DNA of 64,000 bases from an uncultured virus (IMG/VR IMGVR_UViG_3300033388_007403) (IMGVR_UViG_3300033388_007403); one strand, 5' to 3'; shown: positions 3,419 through 64,000, numbered from the stretch's first letter. The notes: generated from the letters alone by a model not told the origin. Numbers and translations are program-made.

Positions 3419-3673
3419 TTAATCAAAATCTATTAAATCAAATCTAGTAACAAAGTCCCAATCTTTATAATCAGAAAATTCTAGATCTATTCCCTTTGTA
3501 GCGGCTCCTGTGTAGTCTGTATAGTTGTCCCAATCATCATCACAATGATAAACAACAAAAATCCATTTATCGTTCCAGGATTTAATGAGACCATATGTTC
3601 TCTTCCCTGCATGATCTTTGTAGAAAACGCCTCTGCCTTTATCTCTAGATTTAAGATTGTCTATTTTAACCAT
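3419..3673 (-). CDS. hypothetical protein ending in RFDLIDFD
   Basis: ORF track; shared C-terminal motif. Confidence 0.7.
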   Translation of the reverse strand: MVKIDNLKSRDKGRGVFYKDHAGKRTYGLIKSWNDKWIFVVYHCDDDWDNYTDYTGAATKGIDLEFSDYKDWDFVTRFDLIDFD

Positions 3674-3969
3674 TATTCATTTTTACTCATTTTCTCCACA
3701 ACAGCATTTCTTACAGTATTAAGAAAAGAGCTTGAACATCCACAATCAAACATAGGATAAAGATAATCTTGTTCATTTTCTTTTATTTTATCACGTATAG
3801 AGCAAATAAAAGTTCCTAATTCTTTGTCATCTTCTTCTAGGAATAAGCAATCTTTTTTCCCAGGAGAATATCTTCCATAAGAACATAATCCTTTTTTACA
3901 ACAATAACCACATTTTACACAAGTATCAATCATTTTTTTCAAACATATTAAATATGTCAGTCGCATCAT
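3673..3969 (-). CDS. CxxCxxCC (YkgJ-like) cysteine-cluster protein
   Basis: CVKCGYCC...CLFL...CSI pattern; true start may be downstream. Confidence 0.6.
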   Translation of the reverse strand: MMRLTYLICLKKMIDTCVKCGYCCKKGLCSYGRYSPGKKDCLFLEEDDKELGTFICSIRDKIKENEQDYLYPMFDCGCSSSFLNTVRNAVVEKMSKNE

Positions 3970-4192: not shown

Positions 4193-5056
4193 TTAAGCTT
4201 CTTTTTTTCGTGTCTTCTCATATTCAAAATCCGTATATAAACTTTCTCTCATTCTAGCCGCAACTGCTATTTTATCACATTTCTCATTTTCTGGATGATC
4301 ATTATGTCCTTTCACCCATTCAATAATAATACGATTTTTGCTCAATAAATGGTATAATTTTTTCCACAAATCCTGGTTCTTCACAGGTTTTTTTGAAGTT
4401 GTTTTCCAACCATTGTCTTTCCAATTATTTAACCAACCTTTATTAATAGCATCAGATACATATTTAGAATCAGTATAGATAAGAACATCGGCAGAACCGC
4501 CAATTCTCTCAAGTGGATGTATTACCCCTAACAACTCCATTCTGTTATTTGTTGTTAGTTTATATCCACCTTCATAGATTTTTTCTCTATCACTGAACTT
4601 CACAATTGCTCCAAATCCACCTTTGCCAGGATTACCAGAACAAGCTCCGTCAGAGTAAATGATTACTTTCTTTCTTTCAATAAGATTCTTCTGTATTCCC
4701 CAATTTATCCAGGCATCTGTTGATTCACCAAGATTGCCAGGAGTCTCTATTTTCTCTATTTTAGTTTTATTAGCAAATTCCGCTAAGAGACAGAATAACC
4801 AGGTTTTTTCAAATTGCATTCTTTTTAAGATATATGGAACTGCTCTTTCTCCTATTTTCTTCATAGAGATATAGCAAGGATGGTCAACACAAATCCAAGA
4901 AAAATTACTAGTTTCTTCTCTCCATCTGTTAGCTAATTTATTGAAATAATCTTCTTCATCGTGGCAGAGAACAGTTTTATCTCCACCACATCTTTCACAA
5001 GATTTCTGCTCATCTTCATTCTTGCCAACACATTGATAGCATTTGAATTCTTCCAT
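4193..5056 (-). CDS. rnhA: ribonuclease HI with N-terminal extension
   Basis: YSDGACSGNPGKGG, TTNNRMEL, TDSKY, KNQDLW, WVKGH..NEKCD. Confidence 0.93.
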   Translation of the reverse strand: MEEFKCYQCVGKNEDEQKSCERCGGDKTVLCHDEEDYFNKLANRWREETSNFSWICVDHPCYISMKKIGERAVPYILKRMQFEKTWLFCLLAEFANKTKIEKIETPGNLGESTDAWINWGIQKNLIERKKVIIYSDGACSGNPGKGGFGAIVKFSDREKIYEGGYKLTTNNRMELLGVIHPLERIGGSADVLIYTDSKYVSDAINKGWLNNWKDNGWKTTSKKPVKNQDLWKKLYHLLSKNRIIIEWVKGHNDHPENEKCDKIAVAARMRESLYTDFEYEKTRKKEA

Positions 5057-50031: not shown

Positions 50032-51315
50032 TTATGCGAACTCCACTAAATAAACTAAATTTGCTTGATTTGTCTTATAAACAATCATTTCATCGTTTAT
50101 CACTCCTGATTGCCCACCTTTAGCCCAAGTGCTATCATACCCCGCTTTAGGATATGAACCCCATCCACCACCCGCAACATAAGATTTACCCATAGCCACT
50201 TCTGAAAGAAACATAAACGTACGATTTGTGTTGCCACCGCTTCCCCAAAAATTCGTGGCATAATTTAATGCTTTAGTCGAAACTGAAGAAAAATACAATC
50301 CATCAGAATACATCCGACCTGTACAATGAGCAGAACTTGATGGAGGAATAACTAAACCCTGCCTAAGAATAGAGAGTAAGTTACTCGCTTTTGTCCCATG
50401 CCATAACTGCATAATATTACCTATTTTACCACTTACTTCATCAAAAGACTTTTTCATTAAAGCTATCTTTACTGCGTATACATCTTTAACATGAAGATTA
50501 TATACTCCATGATGTCCTTTTTTCTTATTACTCTCAAAAAGTTTTGACAATTTATCTATAACCTTTTTGTCAACAACCTTAAAAAGATCCACTTCAAAGA
50601 CTTTCGGTGCTTTCTTCTTTGTAGTTTTCTTTTTCGGTGCAATAGTAACACCTGCAAAAGAAGCATCTAAACCATCAAGTAAAGCATTCTCTTTTTGTAC
50701 TTCTGATAAATTAGGTAGAATATCTATAGGACTCAATCTTTTCATTCCAAAGTCTCTCGGAATAAGAGATAAATATTCATTCAGTGCATCTTCAAAATAA
50801 GGGTCATTCCAATTCTGAACAGCCACCATATCAGATAAATCAGATAAGAGGACTCTTGCTCTATCAATCTGATCTGGCATAATAATGCCTTGTGTAGTCT
50901 TAAACTGTGCTGAACTGGTATCAAAAGTAATTTTATTATTTGTAGCTGTCATAATATTATGAGCATTAACACCTACAAGATATTTAATCAAATTCTTAAC
51001 AATGGGATTATTGTACGTTATTTGCTTGTTTGCTATATCTTTGAGATTAGCATTAACAACAGTTTTAGCAGTTACAGAGCCAGAGCCTTCAACAGTTAGA
51101 TTCTCTCTATATCCTTTTTTCTTTTTTTCTCTGATCTTTTTATCCATAAAAGATCTACCTACTCCACTCCACGTTTTGCTCTGTGAAGTTTTACCCTGTC
51201 TACCCCACTCAGACATAACATCACCATCATCATATAAAGTGACATTCCACCATTTATTGTTATTGTTTCCCAAATTAGTTAAACTAAATTTTCGATATTC
51301 TGCGATATTACTCAT
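50032..51315 (-). CDS. WGR-domain poly(ADP-ribose) polymerase (WGR, helical and catalytic domains)
   Basis: NKWW..EWGRQG..K.KKGY; YLSLIP; LWHGT..NLLSIL..GL; GLYFS..KALNY; LSEVAMG; NDEMIVY (H-Y-E triad). Confidence 0.93.
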   Translation of the reverse strand: MSNIAEYRKFSLTNLGNNNNKWWNVTLYDDGDVMSEWGRQGKTSQSKTWSGVGRSFMDKKIREKKKKGYRENLTVEGSGSVTAKTVVNANLKDIANKQITYNNPIVKNLIKYLVGVNAHNIMTATNNKITFDTSSAQFKTTQGIIMPDQIDRARVLLSDLSDMVAVQNWNDPYFEDALNEYLSLIPRDFGMKRLSPIDILPNLSEVQKENALLDGLDASFAGVTIAPKKKTTKKKAPKVFEVDLFKVVDKKVIDKLSKLFESNKKKGHHGVYNLHVKDVYAVKIALMKKSFDEVSGKIGNIMQLWHGTKASNLLSILRQGLVIPPSSSAHCTGRMYSDGLYFSSVSTKALNYATNFWGSGGNTNRTFMFLSEVAMGKSYVAGGGWGSYPKAGYDSTWAKGGQSGVINDEMIVYKTNQANLVYLVEFA

Positions 51316-55642: not shown

Positions 55643-56389
55643 TTATATATCTTTTATAATTTCTAAAAACTTAAAAAATTCTTCATCTGTTTTTGAGCAT
55701 TTCATCGAGTTGCAACCTCTACAAGCCACCACAAGATTTTCTATACTATGTCTTCCTCCTCTAGATAAAGGAATCTTGTGATCTATTGTAGCATCTTTTT
55801 TATATCCTGCTATCTTTTGACCACATTGTTTTTTACAGTAATAACATTCTAAAACATCAACATTTAATATTTTTTCATAAAAATTTCTAATTTCATCTTC
55901 ATTGCCTATCTCACAATTATATTTTTGTGCTACTTTTTTAACCTGTCTTACTCTACTTGTTATTCTTCCTCTTTTTTTATATCTTTGTCGTTGAAGTAGA
56001 GCTTTTTCAGGATTTTCTTTAGCCCATTTAACACAACGGGCATTTTCTTTTTTTCTGTATTCTTCATCTTCTTTATATCTTTTACTTCTTTTTTCTAATA
56101 CCATTTCTCTATTTTTATAATACCATTCTTTGTTAGCCTCATTCATTTCTTTTTTATGCTCTTTTCTATACTGAGCATTATATTCTTTAACCTTTTCTTT
56201 GTTATTCTTTTTATAACTTTCCCAACTTTTTCTTTTTGTCTTTTTCTTTTGTTCCTCGGAAACTCTTTGTCCAGCACATTTGCATTCAAAACTACAATAA
56301 TGATTTTTTGATCTTTTTATTCGTGAAGGATTCTTTTCAATAGCAACTCCACAAAAATTACAATTAACTGTTACTTTACTTTTTTTCAT
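55643..56389 (-). CDS. HNH homing endonuclease
   Basis: CYYC..TIDHKIPLSRGG.H...NLVVAC..CN..K; promoter AAAGAA-N17-GAATATAT at 56421-56451. Confidence 0.9.
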   Translation of the reverse strand: MKKSKVTVNCNFCGVAIEKNPSRIKRSKNHYCSFECKCAGQRVSEEQKKKTKRKSWESYKKNNKEKVKEYNAQYRKEHKKEMNEANKEWYYKNREMVLEKRSKRYKEDEEYRKKENARCVKWAKENPEKALLQRQRYKKRGRITSRVRQVKKVAQKYNCEIGNEDEIRNFYEKILNVDVLECYYCKKQCGQKIAGYKKDATIDHKIPLSRGGRHSIENLVVACRGCNSMKCSKTDEEFFKFLEIIKDI

Positions 56390-58344: not shown

Positions 58345-59034
58345 TTATTCTAACCATTTTCTGATGCAAGTATCACTTACACCATATTTTCTTCCTACAG
58401 CACAATAATTAGTATCTTTAACTTCTTTTAATAATTGTTCTTTAGAAGGTCTATTTTTAACTTTTTTTTCTACATTAGAATAGTCTCTAGTTCTATTAAA
58501 ACAAGAGCTACACAATCCAGTCTTTGATTTCTTTTTTGTGCTCTTCCCGCACGAATCACAATAAAATAATATTTTTGGTATTATTTTTCTTCTTCTAAAA
58601 GTAGAAGTTTGACTATGACAATGAAGACATAATATTCTTAAATTAGACAATTCATTATTATAAATATCTCCATCAATATGATCTAATTCTAATGTAAGAG
58701 GTTCATTATTCCAAATTGGTAATTGACCACATTTAGAGCACTTATTGTCTATCAATCCCTCTCTTATTAATCTTTTTTTTAAGTAAGTAGATTTTACAAC
58801 AACATCTTTTTTAAGATAAAAACTTAATGGCTCCTTATATTTATTAAAATTATAAGATTGAGTCCCAAAATGAGTTGTATCTAAATCCAATTCTTTTATT
58901 TTATTCTTAATAACCTTATGAGTTCCACCAGCTGGTCTTAATCCCAATTTTCTAATAACCTGGGTTACACTAAAGCTTTCTTTTACAGATAAAATTATAT
59001 CTTCATTAGTATATTCTCTATATTGTCTTACCAT
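58345..59034 (-). CDS. HNH homing endonuclease
   Basis: CSKCG..W..PLTLELDHIDG..N..NLRILC.HCHSQT; promoter AAAGGT-N17-GAATATATA at 59066-59097. Confidence 0.92.
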   Translation of the reverse strand: MVRQYREYTNEDIILSVKESFSVTQVIRKLGLRPAGGTHKVIKNKIKELDLDTTHFGTQSYNFNKYKEPLSFYLKKDVVVKSTYLKKRLIREGLIDNKCSKCGQLPIWNNEPLTLELDHIDGDIYNNELSNLRILCLHCHSQTSTFRRRKIIPKILFYCDSCGKSTKKKSKTGLCSSCFNRTRDYSNVEKKVKNRPSKEQLLKEVKDTNYCAVGRKYGVSDTCIRKWLE

Positions 59035-60383: not shown

Positions 60384-60899
60384 TTATGTCCCATTACTAC
60401 TCTTCAGAATTCTATTACTTATATTTAATTTATCACCAAACGGTGCTACTGTTTTAATTATCCCATTATTAGAATGGGGAAGGGAGAGTATCTTACTACC
60501 CTTCCTATTATTACATTGATCACACATAGTCTGAAGATTATCCAGATGATTAGCTCCACCTTTTGACTTAGGCATTATATGATCCTTTGTCATAAGCCTT
60601 GCTTTTCCTTCAAATATAGCATAAAGATTAAAATGAGTACTATCTCGATCAGATCTACTTGTAAAAGTATCAGCACTGATTATAGTACCTTCTAACCCAC
60701 ATCTTGTACATCTCCTGGATCTTTTAAAACACTGAAGTCGTAATGAGTCAATCCTTATAAGGTGCAACGTTCCTTTAATATCTACTTCAATAGAACCAGC
60801 ATTAGGATCAACTAGATCTAATACACTTTCAGGTTCATATGACTGTAAGTGGATATATCCATTATACAATATTTCTTCATCAATTATCTTCAGCATCAT
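60384..60899 (-). CDS. HNH endonuclease
   Basis: CTRCG..HFNLY..LMTKDHIMPKSKGG..NLQTMC..CN..K. Confidence 0.9.
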   Translation of the reverse strand: MMLKIIDEEILYNGYIHLQSYEPESVLDLVDPNAGSIEVDIKGTLHLIRIDSLRLQCFKRSRRCTRCGLEGTIISADTFTSRSDRDSTHFNLYAIFEGKARLMTKDHIMPKSKGGANHLDNLQTMCDQCNNRKGSKILSLPHSNNGIIKTVAPFGDKLNISNRILKSSNGT

Positions 60900-62254: not shown

Positions 62255-62579
62255 AACTAATTAATCATTCATCATCATAAAAACAAAAATTAAAATAATA
62301 ATCCAAAATACTGACATCTCTCCCCCCCTAAATCTCTATTTATTTCACTCTCCTAAAGAGATCCACAGTAGCAGTAATCGGTGCTAGAGCTGTATGAAAT
62401 AAGAATTTGATAAACAAAAATGGTCCTACAGGATCAGCAGTATAAAAATATTCATCTGCTTTCCATTTTCCCCATTCCAAACACATCCATGCATAACATA
62501 CTTCCATAATCATTACTCTTTCCTTTCTTTTTTACTTTACTAATGAGACTTTTTCTTACTCTGGCGGAATTAAAAAAAT

Positions 62580-62706
62580 GTGGATACGGTGTTAGAGAAC
62601 ATATTAAAACTCTACCAATTGAGATATACAGTGCCAGGCACTGCACCAGGACTCGAACCTAGATACTTTGATTTAACAGTCAGATAACGTTCACTATTCA
62701 ACCCAC
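62580..62706 (-). ncRNA. YrlA-like Y RNA (permuted tRNA mimic)
   Basis: Terminal stem enclosing T arm, closed acceptor hairpin and D arm in that order. Confidence 0.7.
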
Positions 62707-62711
62707 TTTAA

Positions 62712-62784
62712 TCTCTCTAGAAGGATTCGAACCTTCACCCCACGGCCCCAAACCGCGCGTGCAACCAAGTAACACTTTAGAGAG
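62712..62784 (-). tRNA. tRNA-Pro(TGG)
   Basis: CGCGG-TTTGGGG-CCGTG; C1:G72. Confidence 0.88.
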
Positions 62785-62790
62785 TAAAAT

Positions 62791-62857
62791 AACGGATACG
62801 TTAATACAAAAAAGTTTTAGCCATTTCAAGTAGATAACTTTCTCATTTCAACCCGTT
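62791..62857 (-). ncRNA. minimal Y-RNA-like gene (terminal stem only)
   Basis: Shares GGGTTGAA..GTTATCT 5' and CGTATCC 3' with 62580-62706. Confidence 0.55.
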
Positions 62858-62960
62858 AAAATTAAGTAATAAGACAGAATCCAGCTCTGACATACACTTT
62901 CTTATGAAAGTGTGTTTTAATAAAAGATTAAATTAAACTATTATTACTTAATATATTAAA

Positions 62961-63035
62961 TAGCGGAGGATGGATTCGAACCACCGACTTTTTGGTTATG
63001 AGCCAAACGAGCTGACCAGACTGCTCTACCCCGCG
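62961..63035 (-). tRNA. tRNA-fMet(CAT)-like
   Basis: CGCGGGGTAGAGCAG start, unpaired C1; loop CTCATAA. Confidence 0.9.
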
Positions 63036-63096
63036 ATAAAAATATCTTATAAATAATTAAGGCTGACAATCTAACCAGACTGCTCTACCCCGTAAA

Positions 63097-63136
63097 TAGC
63101 GATATTCGGAATCGAACCGAAGACTCAGACGTATGA
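63097..63136 (-). pseudogene. 3' half of interrupted tRNA(CAT)
   Basis: TCATAC-GTCTG-AGTC-TTCGG TTCGATT CCGAA-TATCGCT-A. Confidence 0.85.
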
Positions 63137-63143
63137 TTTTTAA

Positions 63144-63215
63144 TAGTAGGGACTGGATTTGAACCAGCATTATCCTTCGTATGAAAAAGGAGCATTGTCA
63201 TTATGCTACCCTACC
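63144..63215 (-). tRNA. tRNA(CAT) carried inside the insertion
   Basis: GGTAGGG/CCCTACT; CCTTT-TTCATAC-GAAGG. Confidence 0.85.
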
Positions 63216-63218
63216 TTT

Positions 63219-63869
63219 TTAAAACAACCATTTATCAGAATTATCTTTTACAAACTCTTTAATCGAACCAAAAATTTGTTGAGCAATTCTTGTATTATTT
63301 ATAGATACTGTGCATATACCATAAGGATGTTTTACTTTTGTATTATCATAATATTTACTTTTAAGTGTGCATTTTCTCAAACAACTGACAGGTAGTTTTA
63401 ATTGATTGCACCAATATGACTGAATATCTTCTAATGTTAGATTATTATTAAGATAGTATTGAAAAGTAATGCTAAAATCATTATCTTGAACATTAAAATA
63501 TTTACGAAGAAATTTAACAAAATAAGAAATCATTTTAATATCACTATTTGTTAATCTTACATAATTTTTACATTTAGTTCCTTCTCCCCAGAATAAAGCA
63601 CATCCAAATGCATATCCTTTATCTTCATTATGAATTTTTTCTCTTCCTTGAGCTTGATACTCTCTTCTTTTGTTCCTAAAATTTTCAGAATATTTTATAT
63701 AAGATTTATCTCTCAGTTGTAGTTTCTCTCTTTGCTCATTTGTTAGATCAATATCTCTAACCCACAAACTTACTGAACTCTTAGAAACTTTAACACTTTT
63801 TGCTATATCATTTAAAGATAATCCTTGTTGCCTTAATTTTCTACATTCTTCTTTTTCTTTTAATTTCAT
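63219..63869 (-). CDS. HTH plus LAGLIDADG-like putative homing endonuclease
   Basis: LRQQGLSLNDIA..VSKSSVSLW HTH; CALFWGEG..LTNSD..F..FL; promoter AAAGGA-N17-GAACTTATA at 63901-63932. Confidence 0.7.
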   Translation of the reverse strand: MKLKEKEECRKLRQQGLSLNDIAKSVKVSKSSVSLWVRDIDLTNEQREKLQLRDKSYIKYSENFRNKRREYQAQGREKIHNEDKGYAFGCALFWGEGTKCKNYVRLTNSDIKMISYFVKFLRKYFNVQDNDFSITFQYYLNNNLTLEDIQSYWCNQLKLPVSCLRKCTLKSKYYDNTKVKHPYGICTVSINNTRIAQQIFGSIKEFVKDNSDKWLF

Positions 63870-63947
63870 TATAAAACCCTTTATTAATAGAACTCATATA
63901 TATAAGTTCGACAATAAGGGTTAAATTCCTTTAATTATTTTTAAAAA

Positions 63948-63986
63948 TATGAAATCTGTGTGTTAACCGAACTATACCATATCGCT
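63948..63986 (-). pseudogene. 5' half of interrupted tRNA(CAT)
   Basis: AGCGATA-TG-GTAT AGTTCGGTTA ACAC-A-CAGAT-TTCATA. Confidence 0.85.
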
Positions 63987-64000
63987 TTAAAGACCAACAA

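Follow-up and report, generated by a model that had tools for sequence, protein, structure and literature searches.

Introduction

Homing endonucleases normally spare their host, since their genes lie between other genes or travel in an intron or intein that splices itself out. Enzymes of the I-DmoI/I-CreI type are encoded in self-splicing or archaeal introns or in inteins, and the host gene stays functional. In the nrdA gene of phage Aeh1, the free-standing endonuclease gene mobE is reportedly inserted without an intron, and the gene pieces are said still to form a working protein complex. LAGLIDADG-derived folds are also found in WhiA, a conserved regulator composed of two degenerate LAGLIDADG domains and a C-terminal HTH domain. 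The closest known system to the one analyzed here is SegB of phage T4. SegB is a GIY-YIG enzyme encoded free-standing in a tRNA cluster, recognises a T-psi-C stem-loop motif, leaves 2-nt overhangs and spreads itself together with neighbouring tRNA genes (PMC2330249; also cited in PMC8421152). Anticodon loops of tRNA genes can also contain group I introns, as in the Azoarcus pre-tRNA-Ile system (PMC13168695).

In this study, we analyzed a stretch of 64,000 nt (hereafter the window) from the uncultured virus IMGVR_UViG_3300033388_007403, in which a tRNA(CAT) gene is split by an endonuclease-like gene and a second tRNA(CAT) gene. The element resembles SegB in its home in a phage tRNA array, in its probable recognition of a tRNA gene and in the neighbouring tRNA gene that it would carry along. 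It differs from SegB, which has a GIY-YIG fold, lies between genes and is not described as splitting a tRNA gene or bearing a spare with the same anticodon. Like the group I introns of tRNA genes (Azoarcus and locus L147 of our survey), the insertion interrupts an anticodon loop, here that of a bacterial-type tRNA(CAT), but the insert of the window has no ribozyme. As with mobE, an endonuclease gene lies within a host gene without an intron; here, however, the gene fragments seem to be dead, and the insert brings a spare copy. The cassette of the window thus appears to spare its host in another way, by breaking the target gene and delivering a spare copy together with the break. We consider it probable that a selfish homing-endonuclease cassette, with an enzyme that would cut tRNA(CAT) genes and a companion tRNA that would be immune to it, broke a tRNA(CAT) gene in its anticodon loop within the tRNA array of a large phage.

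Results

Anatomy of the split tRNA(CAT) gene

The window has a G+C content of about 33% and contains mostly small minus-strand ORFs. ARAGORN called 24 tRNA genes between 56.9 and 63.2 kb, and the PHROG matches include RNase H, a PARP-like protein, a DHH phosphoesterase and a methyltransferase. We take the window to belong to a large phage. The minus strand contains, in succession, the 5' half of a tRNA gene, 811 bp of other sequence and the 3' half of the same gene (Table 1). Upstream of the 5' half, the window extends for 14 nt.

Table 1. Features of the split tRNA(CAT) locus and its array, and loop bases duplicated at the junctions of the window and three further loci
Feature	Position in the window	Strand	Detail	Basis
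5' half of split tRNA(CAT)	63948..63986	-	acceptor 5' strand, D arm, anticodon-stem 5' strand, loop positions 32-37	sequence, ARAGORN
Direct repeat, copy 1	63948..63952	-	TCATA, loop positions 33-37	
Inserted cassette	63137..63947	-	811 bp	
Leader 5' of the endonuclease-like gene	63870..63947	-	AAGGG ribosome-binding site; partly conserved with L161, L081 and L001	
HTH + single LAGLIDADG-like domain protein	63219..63869	-	216 aa; motif GCALFWGEGTK; E96, G97 and K99 invariant in the family	
Inner (companion) tRNA(CAT)	63144..63215	-	intact, elongator type, loop TTCATAC	ARAGORN; Rfam, 56.3 bits
Spacer, inner tRNA to right junction	63137..63143	-	7 nt, TTAAAAA	
Direct repeat, copy 2	63132..63136	-	TCATA	
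Remainder of 3' half of split tRNA(CAT)	63097..63131	-	C38, anticodon-stem 3' strand, variable loop, T arm, acceptor 3' strand, discriminator A	ARAGORN
Orphan 5' fragment	63061..63092	-	resembles the next tRNA(CAT), at 63036-62960	sequence comparison
Three HNH endonuclease genes	55643-56389, 58345-59034, 60384-60899	-	within or at the edge of the tRNA array	
Duplicated loop bases, window			TCATA	
Duplicated loop bases, L081			TCATA	
Duplicated loop bases, L169			TCGTA, possibly TCGTAT	
Duplicated loop bases, L001			TCAT	

When 63986-63948 was joined to 63131-63097, so that one TCATA was dropped, ARAGORN called a 74-nt tRNA-Met(cat). The acceptor stem has 7 of 7 pairs, the T stem 5 of 5, the anticodon stem 5 pairs including one G-T, and the D stem 3 of 4; the loop reads TTCATAC. 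An earlier reading of this DNA, made from the sequence alone (hereafter the sequence-only reading), had joined 63986-63948 to 63136-63097 as one cloverleaf. With both copies of TCATA kept in this way, ARAGORN returned an aberrant 79-nt tRNA with a 4-base anticodon and nothing else, so that the cloverleaf stands once a single TCATA is removed and fails as first written. The perfect T arm, the matching acceptor strands and the 811-bp insert between TCATA direct repeats, all claimed in the same reading, were found as described.

The sequence-only reading had proposed relatives with an intact tRNA and no endonuclease as a check. For the window's own tRNA, exact-pattern scans of IMG/VR for either half gave 0 matches, and no insert-free allele was found. 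Empty sites were observed for cellular members of the family, as described below. Among the homologous loci, the best intact look-alike of the rejoined tRNA is a tRNA-Gly(tcc) with 76% identity, and the best tRNA(CAT) is 69% identical.

The inner tRNA begins 3 bases past the 216-aa ORF. Its loop is the same as that of the split tRNA and the rest of its sequence is different, in agreement with the complete but divergent tRNA noted earlier from the sequence; both ARAGORN and Rfam recovered it. Apart from this tRNA, the non-coding part of the insert amounts to 78 + 3 + 7 nt. A promoter, which had also been placed in the insert, did not hold up: the 10 sigma-70-like sites in 62800-64000 are at chance level (7.8 +/- 2.3 in shuffles), and none is significant.

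The mismatched first pair of the two initiator-like genes of the array (63036 and 61855) is absent from both the split and the inner tRNA in the ARAGORN folds. The CAT anticodon alone cannot tell Met from Ile2, and this holds for both tRNAs. The spare may have the same identity as the split tRNA and represent a like-for-like replacement. The inner tRNA may also be resistant to cleavage. Since both tRNAs have the loop TTCATAC, any immunity must reside in the differences between their stems.

Several further features of the array are worth recording. Two endonuclease families are represented in it, by four genes or more. The orphan 5' fragment, which comes immediately behind the 3' half, shares a 19-nt identical core with the initiator-like tRNA(CAT) that follows and stops close to the anticodon loop, possibly as a further relic of an anticodon-loop break. 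The motif GGTTGAA...GTTATC occurs three times (62853-62833, 62703-62683 and 62031-62011), and a similar string is found upstream of the 5' half in L161. At 62577-62701 on the minus strand, an orphan T arm and a D-arm-like segment after it have a weak similarity to YrlA in Rfam (Y RNA-like; 24.1 bits, E 0.025), far under the gathering score. Elsewhere in the window, a minus-strand gene at 50032-51315 encodes 427 aa with a WGR domain and the regulatory and catalytic domains of PARP (Pfam 2.2e-24 for the latter), an unusual phage cargo.

The protein encoded in the cassette

Pfam matched the 216-aa protein with HTH families only, weakly and at the N-terminus, and gave no LAGLIDADG match; no named family was found in NCBIfam or the ESM Atlas. 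An alignment of 42 homologues showed a conserved block, GCxLYWAEGxK, in which E96, G97 and K99 are invariant (42/42 for E96 and G97). The block has the hallmark of the LAGLIDADG group, namely a LAGLIDADG helix ending in a conserved acidic residue and a glycine (E96 and G97). Among PDB sequences, the profile built from these homologues matched I-DmoI, aligning with its second LAGLIDADG motif (E 0.0034). In hhalign, the family aligned with a probability of 99.1 to P0106, in which the same HTH is fused to Pfam LAGLIDADG_3 (1.4e-14) and LAGLIDADG_1, and the family motif fell on the classical YFAADGS of P0106.

The AF2 model of the protein (pLDDT 93.7) consists of three short helices, a long linker helix and then alpha-beta-beta-alpha-beta-(alpha)-beta-alpha. 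This order is that of the LAGLIDADG core, alpha-beta-beta-alpha-beta-beta-alpha, with one extra helix. The four best structural neighbours in VIA-align are all LAGLIDADG domains, namely 7qsu_A (an intein endonuclease domain, Z 7.6), I-DmoI (2vs8_A, Z 6.6), WhiA (Z 6.0) and E-DreI (Z 5.8), where a Z below 8 can mean a common arrangement only. The superposition on I-DmoI 2vs8_A gave an rmsd of 2.5 over 81 aa. I-Vdi141I and I-CreI ranked lower, and the neighbours of the I-DmoI/I-CreI type span Z 4.6-6.6. Foldseek against the PDB returned no match for the model at E <= 0.001.

We concluded that the protein combines an HTH with a single LAGLIDADG-like domain in which the acid at the catalytic position is retained. 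An HTH/LAGLIDADG-like gene had been proposed for this ORF; the motif, the profile match and the fold neighbours support it, with modest Z scores. We take it to be a putative nuclease, with a tRNA gene as its presumed target. The protein is similar to I-DmoI in the second motif, has I-DmoI as a structural neighbour of its core at a modest Z, and has one domain as does the homodimeric I-CreI; it differs from these enzymes in the extra N-terminal HTH, the long linker helix, the lack of an intron and the replacement gene brought along. With WhiA it shares an HTH and what appears to be a LAGLIDADG-derived fold, whereas the window family has one domain, an N-terminal HTH, an invariant acid and a patchy distribution.

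A SegB-like GIY-YIG or HNH endonuclease was considered and excluded, since Pfam matched HTH families only and neither of these catalytic domains. Some weak PHROG matches bear the name HNH, but they cover residues 5-104 and thus mainly the HTH, and the true HNH genes sit elsewhere in the array.

Size of the family and its association with tRNA genes

The family comprises 1,299 clusters of 50% identity at E <= 1e-10 and 285 at E <= 1e-30. Candidates were confirmed in 547 of 598 cases from metagenomes, 564 of 601 from genomes and 34 of 43 from IMG/VR. We kept 194 loci, listed by L numbers, of which 193 are distinct (L043 and L173 are one contig). A scan of IMG/VR with the window protein alone found nothing; the IMG/VR homologues were recovered by an alignment-based scan. 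Named phage genomes gave no tblastn match, and in blastn only generic tRNA-Met matches. The nearest relative of the window ORF, 74% identical in amino acids, is that of L161, which lies on a 548-kb IMG/VR record rated complete by CheckV. On the tree, the nearest endonucleases are those of the window, L161, L081 and L001. Full-text searches of the literature found no account of the family or of an endonuclease cassette that splits a tRNA and brings a spare.

A tRNA gene is present in 183 of the 194 loci and lies within 150 bp of the homologue in 174 of them, with a median distance of 62 bp over the 183. The commonest neighbours are tRNA-Gly(TCC) upstream (57 loci), tRNA-Glu(TTC) on the opposite strand (32), tRNA-Val(TAC) downstream (18) and tRNA-Met(CAT) upstream (16). 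The identity of the neighbouring tRNA changes 44 times on a FastTree phylogeny of 174 proteins, against approximately 103-107 times in the five listed of 100 label shuffles; kinship of the hosts contributes to this clustering.

Recurrence of a split tRNA with a spare

Because the intron mode of ARAGORN did not report the split gene, a custom split-tRNA scan was written. It looks for a T arm and acceptor strand downstream of the endonuclease-like gene and for a matching acceptor strand, D stem and anticodon-stem strand upstream, and passes the joined sequence to ARAGORN; it covers tRNAs without a long variable arm. With strict settings, 8 of 194 loci had a split tRNA flanking the gene, and none of 970 mismatched-locus controls did. 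Six distinct cases were accepted, since L043 equals L173 and L192 is doubtful, its 3' half belonging to an intact tRNA. A relaxed scan added L001. Its background is noisy, with 19 matches against 7 in controls (388 locus-strand tests each), and acceptance was therefore limited to strict cases or those with a fully duplicated loop. L185, L193 and minus-strand tRNA-Glu matches were dropped, as was L192, for halves that belong to intact tRNAs.

The accepted cases are the window, L081 and L001 (all CAT), L169 (CGT), L043 (CCC), L058 (CAC), L070 (TCC) and L171 (GCC or TCC). Thus, beyond the window, the design is found in seven distinct loci (7/193), and it covers five anticodons and the amino acids Met, Thr, Gly and Val. 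ARAGORN called a tRNA in all eight rejoined sequences. In each case, an intact tRNA lies within the insert beside the endonuclease-like gene; its anticodon is that of the split tRNA in seven of eight, and in L171 only the amino acid is the same. Six of the seven loci other than the window are arrays of at least four tRNAs, as are 41 of all 194 loci; the seventh, L001, is a 2-kb contig.

In the four clean cases, the inner tRNA abuts a junction. It lies 7 nt (window), 6 nt (L081) and 0 nt (L001) from the right junction, and in L169, where the order is tRNA and then endonuclease, 2 nt from the left one. This position indicates a discrete two-gene cassette. The duplication common to these four cases covers loop positions 33-36 and reaches 37 in three of them (Table 1). 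The cuts of classical LAGLIDADG enzymes have 3' overhangs of 4 nt. If such overhangs were retained, a duplication of 4 nt would result, and the one seen here may reflect the cut of the enzyme. The junctions of L043, L058, L070 and L171 are untidy, with damaged loops, and these cases look older.

A second split tRNA was seen in L081, a tRNA-Lys(TTT) at 3835-3867 and 4426-4459. Its insert of about 560 bp contains a tRNA-Glu(TTC), a partial tRNA-Glu fragment and no ORF of at least 40 aa.

Tests for an intron

Rfam intron models gave no match at E <= 10 over 62300-64000. The same search found a group I intron (Intron_gpI, 61.6 bits) inside the split tRNA(CAT) of L147, so that the negative result for the window is meaningful. 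All six possible junctions leave a putative intron ending in A or T, never in G; group I introns end with G, and the exon before them with U. The junction flanks of the window, L081, L169 and L001 were folded and shared neither a bulge-helix-bulge (two 3-nt bulges and a 4-bp helix) nor any other common pairing. A group I or II intron was rejected on the Rfam search with its control, and an archaeal-type bulge-helix-bulge intron or a trans-splicing pairing on the folds of the four loci. The absence of splicing had been part of the sequence-only reading, with a group I fold of the insert as the finding that would speak against it; no such fold was seen.

An integrase-borne element targeting a tRNA was also considered and rejected: the 811-bp insert has no recombinase gene, the duplication is only 5 nt, and the tRNA is not restored.

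Three tRNA genes in Chloroflexota and Actinomycetota MAGs carry anticodon-loop inserts of approximately 270-300 nt near an endonuclease-like gene (L147, 2528-2860; L099, 1735-2065; L127, 1457-1769). The insert of L147 is the group I intron used as control, and those of L099 and L127 are below the gathering score.

Fate of the tRNA halves and cellular members of the family

In L161, only the 5' half is present. A matching 3' half was found neither in the locus nor in the whole 548-kb record, which was searched by an acceptor-plus-T-loop motif with 1 mismatch allowed. Since L161 keeps the 5' half alone, we regard both halves as probably dead remnants. Identity among the rejoined split tRNAs is 41-59% for the window, L081 and L001, and each forms a perfect cloverleaf; their inner tRNAs are 57-83% identical, above the split tRNAs. 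Such divergence together with perfect folding requires either repeated fresh insertions or selection on the halves. We propose that the intact folds result from repeated insertion or homing into fresh tRNA(CAT) genes, with the flanks renewed from the recipient. There is a small chance that the halves have a function.

After the inner tRNA of L161, at approximately 3727-3800, there is a tRNA-like sequence with the anticodon-loop region CAGCTTAACTG (possible TTA or TAA anticodon), which ARAGORN did not call. It might be a suppressor-like tRNA or a decayed tRNA.

Among cells, 81 genomes of one order, that of genome G001, were sampled at a completeness of at least 80%, and 3 of them contain the gene. 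In two genomes, G084 and G107, only 33-42 bp separate the intact tRNA-Gly(TCC) from the gene downstream of it, and in L086 about 980 bp, including the endonuclease-like gene, lie there. Cellular members thus show both presence and absence of the gene and empty target sites, which are the marks of mobility. In Actinomycetota, the element lies just downstream of an intact tRNA-Gly(TCC), and around the cellular genes no tRNA halves or partial copies were found beyond short T-arm-like matches. As the cellular copies sit beside an intact tRNA without halves, insertion into the anticodon loop with a spare tRNA is a habit of the phage-array members and not of the whole family.

In L086 (a Gaiellaceae MAG), the inserted segment runs about 280 bp past the endonuclease-like gene (approximately 3672-3950) and begins an ORF. 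The start of this ORF, which is Cys-x-Phe-Cys-Asp-Ile-like, is what we take to be reminiscent of HIT proteins.

Discussion

A selfish element that breaks a tRNA gene and compensates with a tRNA of its own was the core of the sequence-only reading. The lack of an intron signature, the HTH + LAGLIDADG-like protein, the seven further loci and, in cells, the patchy distribution with empty sites all support it. The events could be as follows. The enzyme, probably a homodimer, would cut the anticodon stem-loop DNA of a tRNA(CAT) gene, a natural near-palindrome suited to a homodimer. The cassette would then be captured at the break with both overhangs kept, leaving the 4-5-nt duplication of loop positions 33-36/37. 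Ordinary homing could spread the cassette from there, with the two tRNA halves as homology arms. The companion tRNA, having different stems, would escape cutting and supply a tRNA with a CAU anticodon, and splicing would therefore not be needed. It is worth noting, however, that a 5-nt duplication is not expected from homing by homologous repair, and that the overhangs of classical LAGLIDADG enzymes measure 4 nt.

A more general proposal can be made for the whole HTH + single-LAGLIDADG family, which could be a dedicated homing system for tRNA genes. Its members would cut the anticodon stem-loop DNA of one tRNA species and spread as a 'break and replace' cassette of two genes, of which the companion tRNA would be immune. 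We advance this proposal tentatively, at a little less than an even chance.

The protein may instead be a free-standing homing enzyme of the array and the cassette not a mobile unit, so that the halves and fragments are one-off scars of sloppy double-strand-break repair and of co-conversion of a neighbouring tRNA. T4 SegB offers a precedent, since it drags flanking tRNA genes by co-conversion (PMC2330249), and the array has debris of the expected kind: the orphan 5' fragment, orphan T arms, the three HNH genes and, in L081, the split tRNA-Lys without an endonuclease. The untidy junctions of the four older cases would also fit. Random scars, however, are unlikely to repeat, and the same duplication of loop positions 33-36/37 is found in the three divergent targets of the window, L081 and L001 and likewise in the independent Thr(CGT) case. 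In addition, the four nearest endonucleases (window, L161, L081 and L001) lie in the same order within a split tRNA(CAT). We therefore regard one-off scars as an unlikely explanation.

Less probable still is a domesticated protein of the WhiA type, which would bind DNA at tRNA genes and not act as a nuclease, the tRNA having been split by an unrelated rearrangement. The invariant acid at the catalytic position (all 42 aligned sequences), the occurrence in so few genomes of one order together with empty sites, unlike a housekeeping regulator, and the recurrence of the split-plus-spare design all argue against such a factor. They outweigh, in our view, the place of WhiA among the best structural neighbours (a second WhiA match has Z 5.2), the nearly constant position of the family beside a tRNA gene, and the source annotations, which call some members 'transcriptional regulator'.

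That the split tRNA is functional, with the insert removed or bypassed in the RNA by an unrecognised intron or by RNase P/RNase Z processing at the inner tRNA and ligation, is very improbable. In its favour are the perfect cloverleaves of three divergent split tRNAs, a junction that fits the canonical 37/38 intron position and an inner tRNA abutting one junction, where tRNA-processing enzymes would cut nearby. Against it are the negative Rfam search with its positive control, the A or T at every putative intron end, the lack of a bulge-helix-bulge or pairing common to the four loci, the 3' half found neither in the locus of L161 nor by the motif search of its 548-kb record, and the damaged loops of the older cases.

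We therefore return to the reading of a mobile cassette that breaks a tRNA gene and replaces it. Should the enzyme indeed cut a chosen tRNA gene in its anticodon-loop DNA, this activity would partly explain the rapid turnover and the debris of phage tRNA arrays. A large family whose present annotation is just 'HTH protein' would also gain a name and a function, and natural LAGLIDADG scaffolds that have an additional DNA-binding domain would become available. A possible role of phage tRNAs as tools of counter-defence is under discussion, and a 2026 paper treats SegB and anti-defence loci; a mechanism that would swap tRNA alleles between phages bears on this role. If the family is indeed a dedicated homing system for tRNA genes, it would drive the turnover of tRNA alleles in the arrays of huge phages and seed the tRNA-adjacent copies in Actinomycetota and Chloroflexota.
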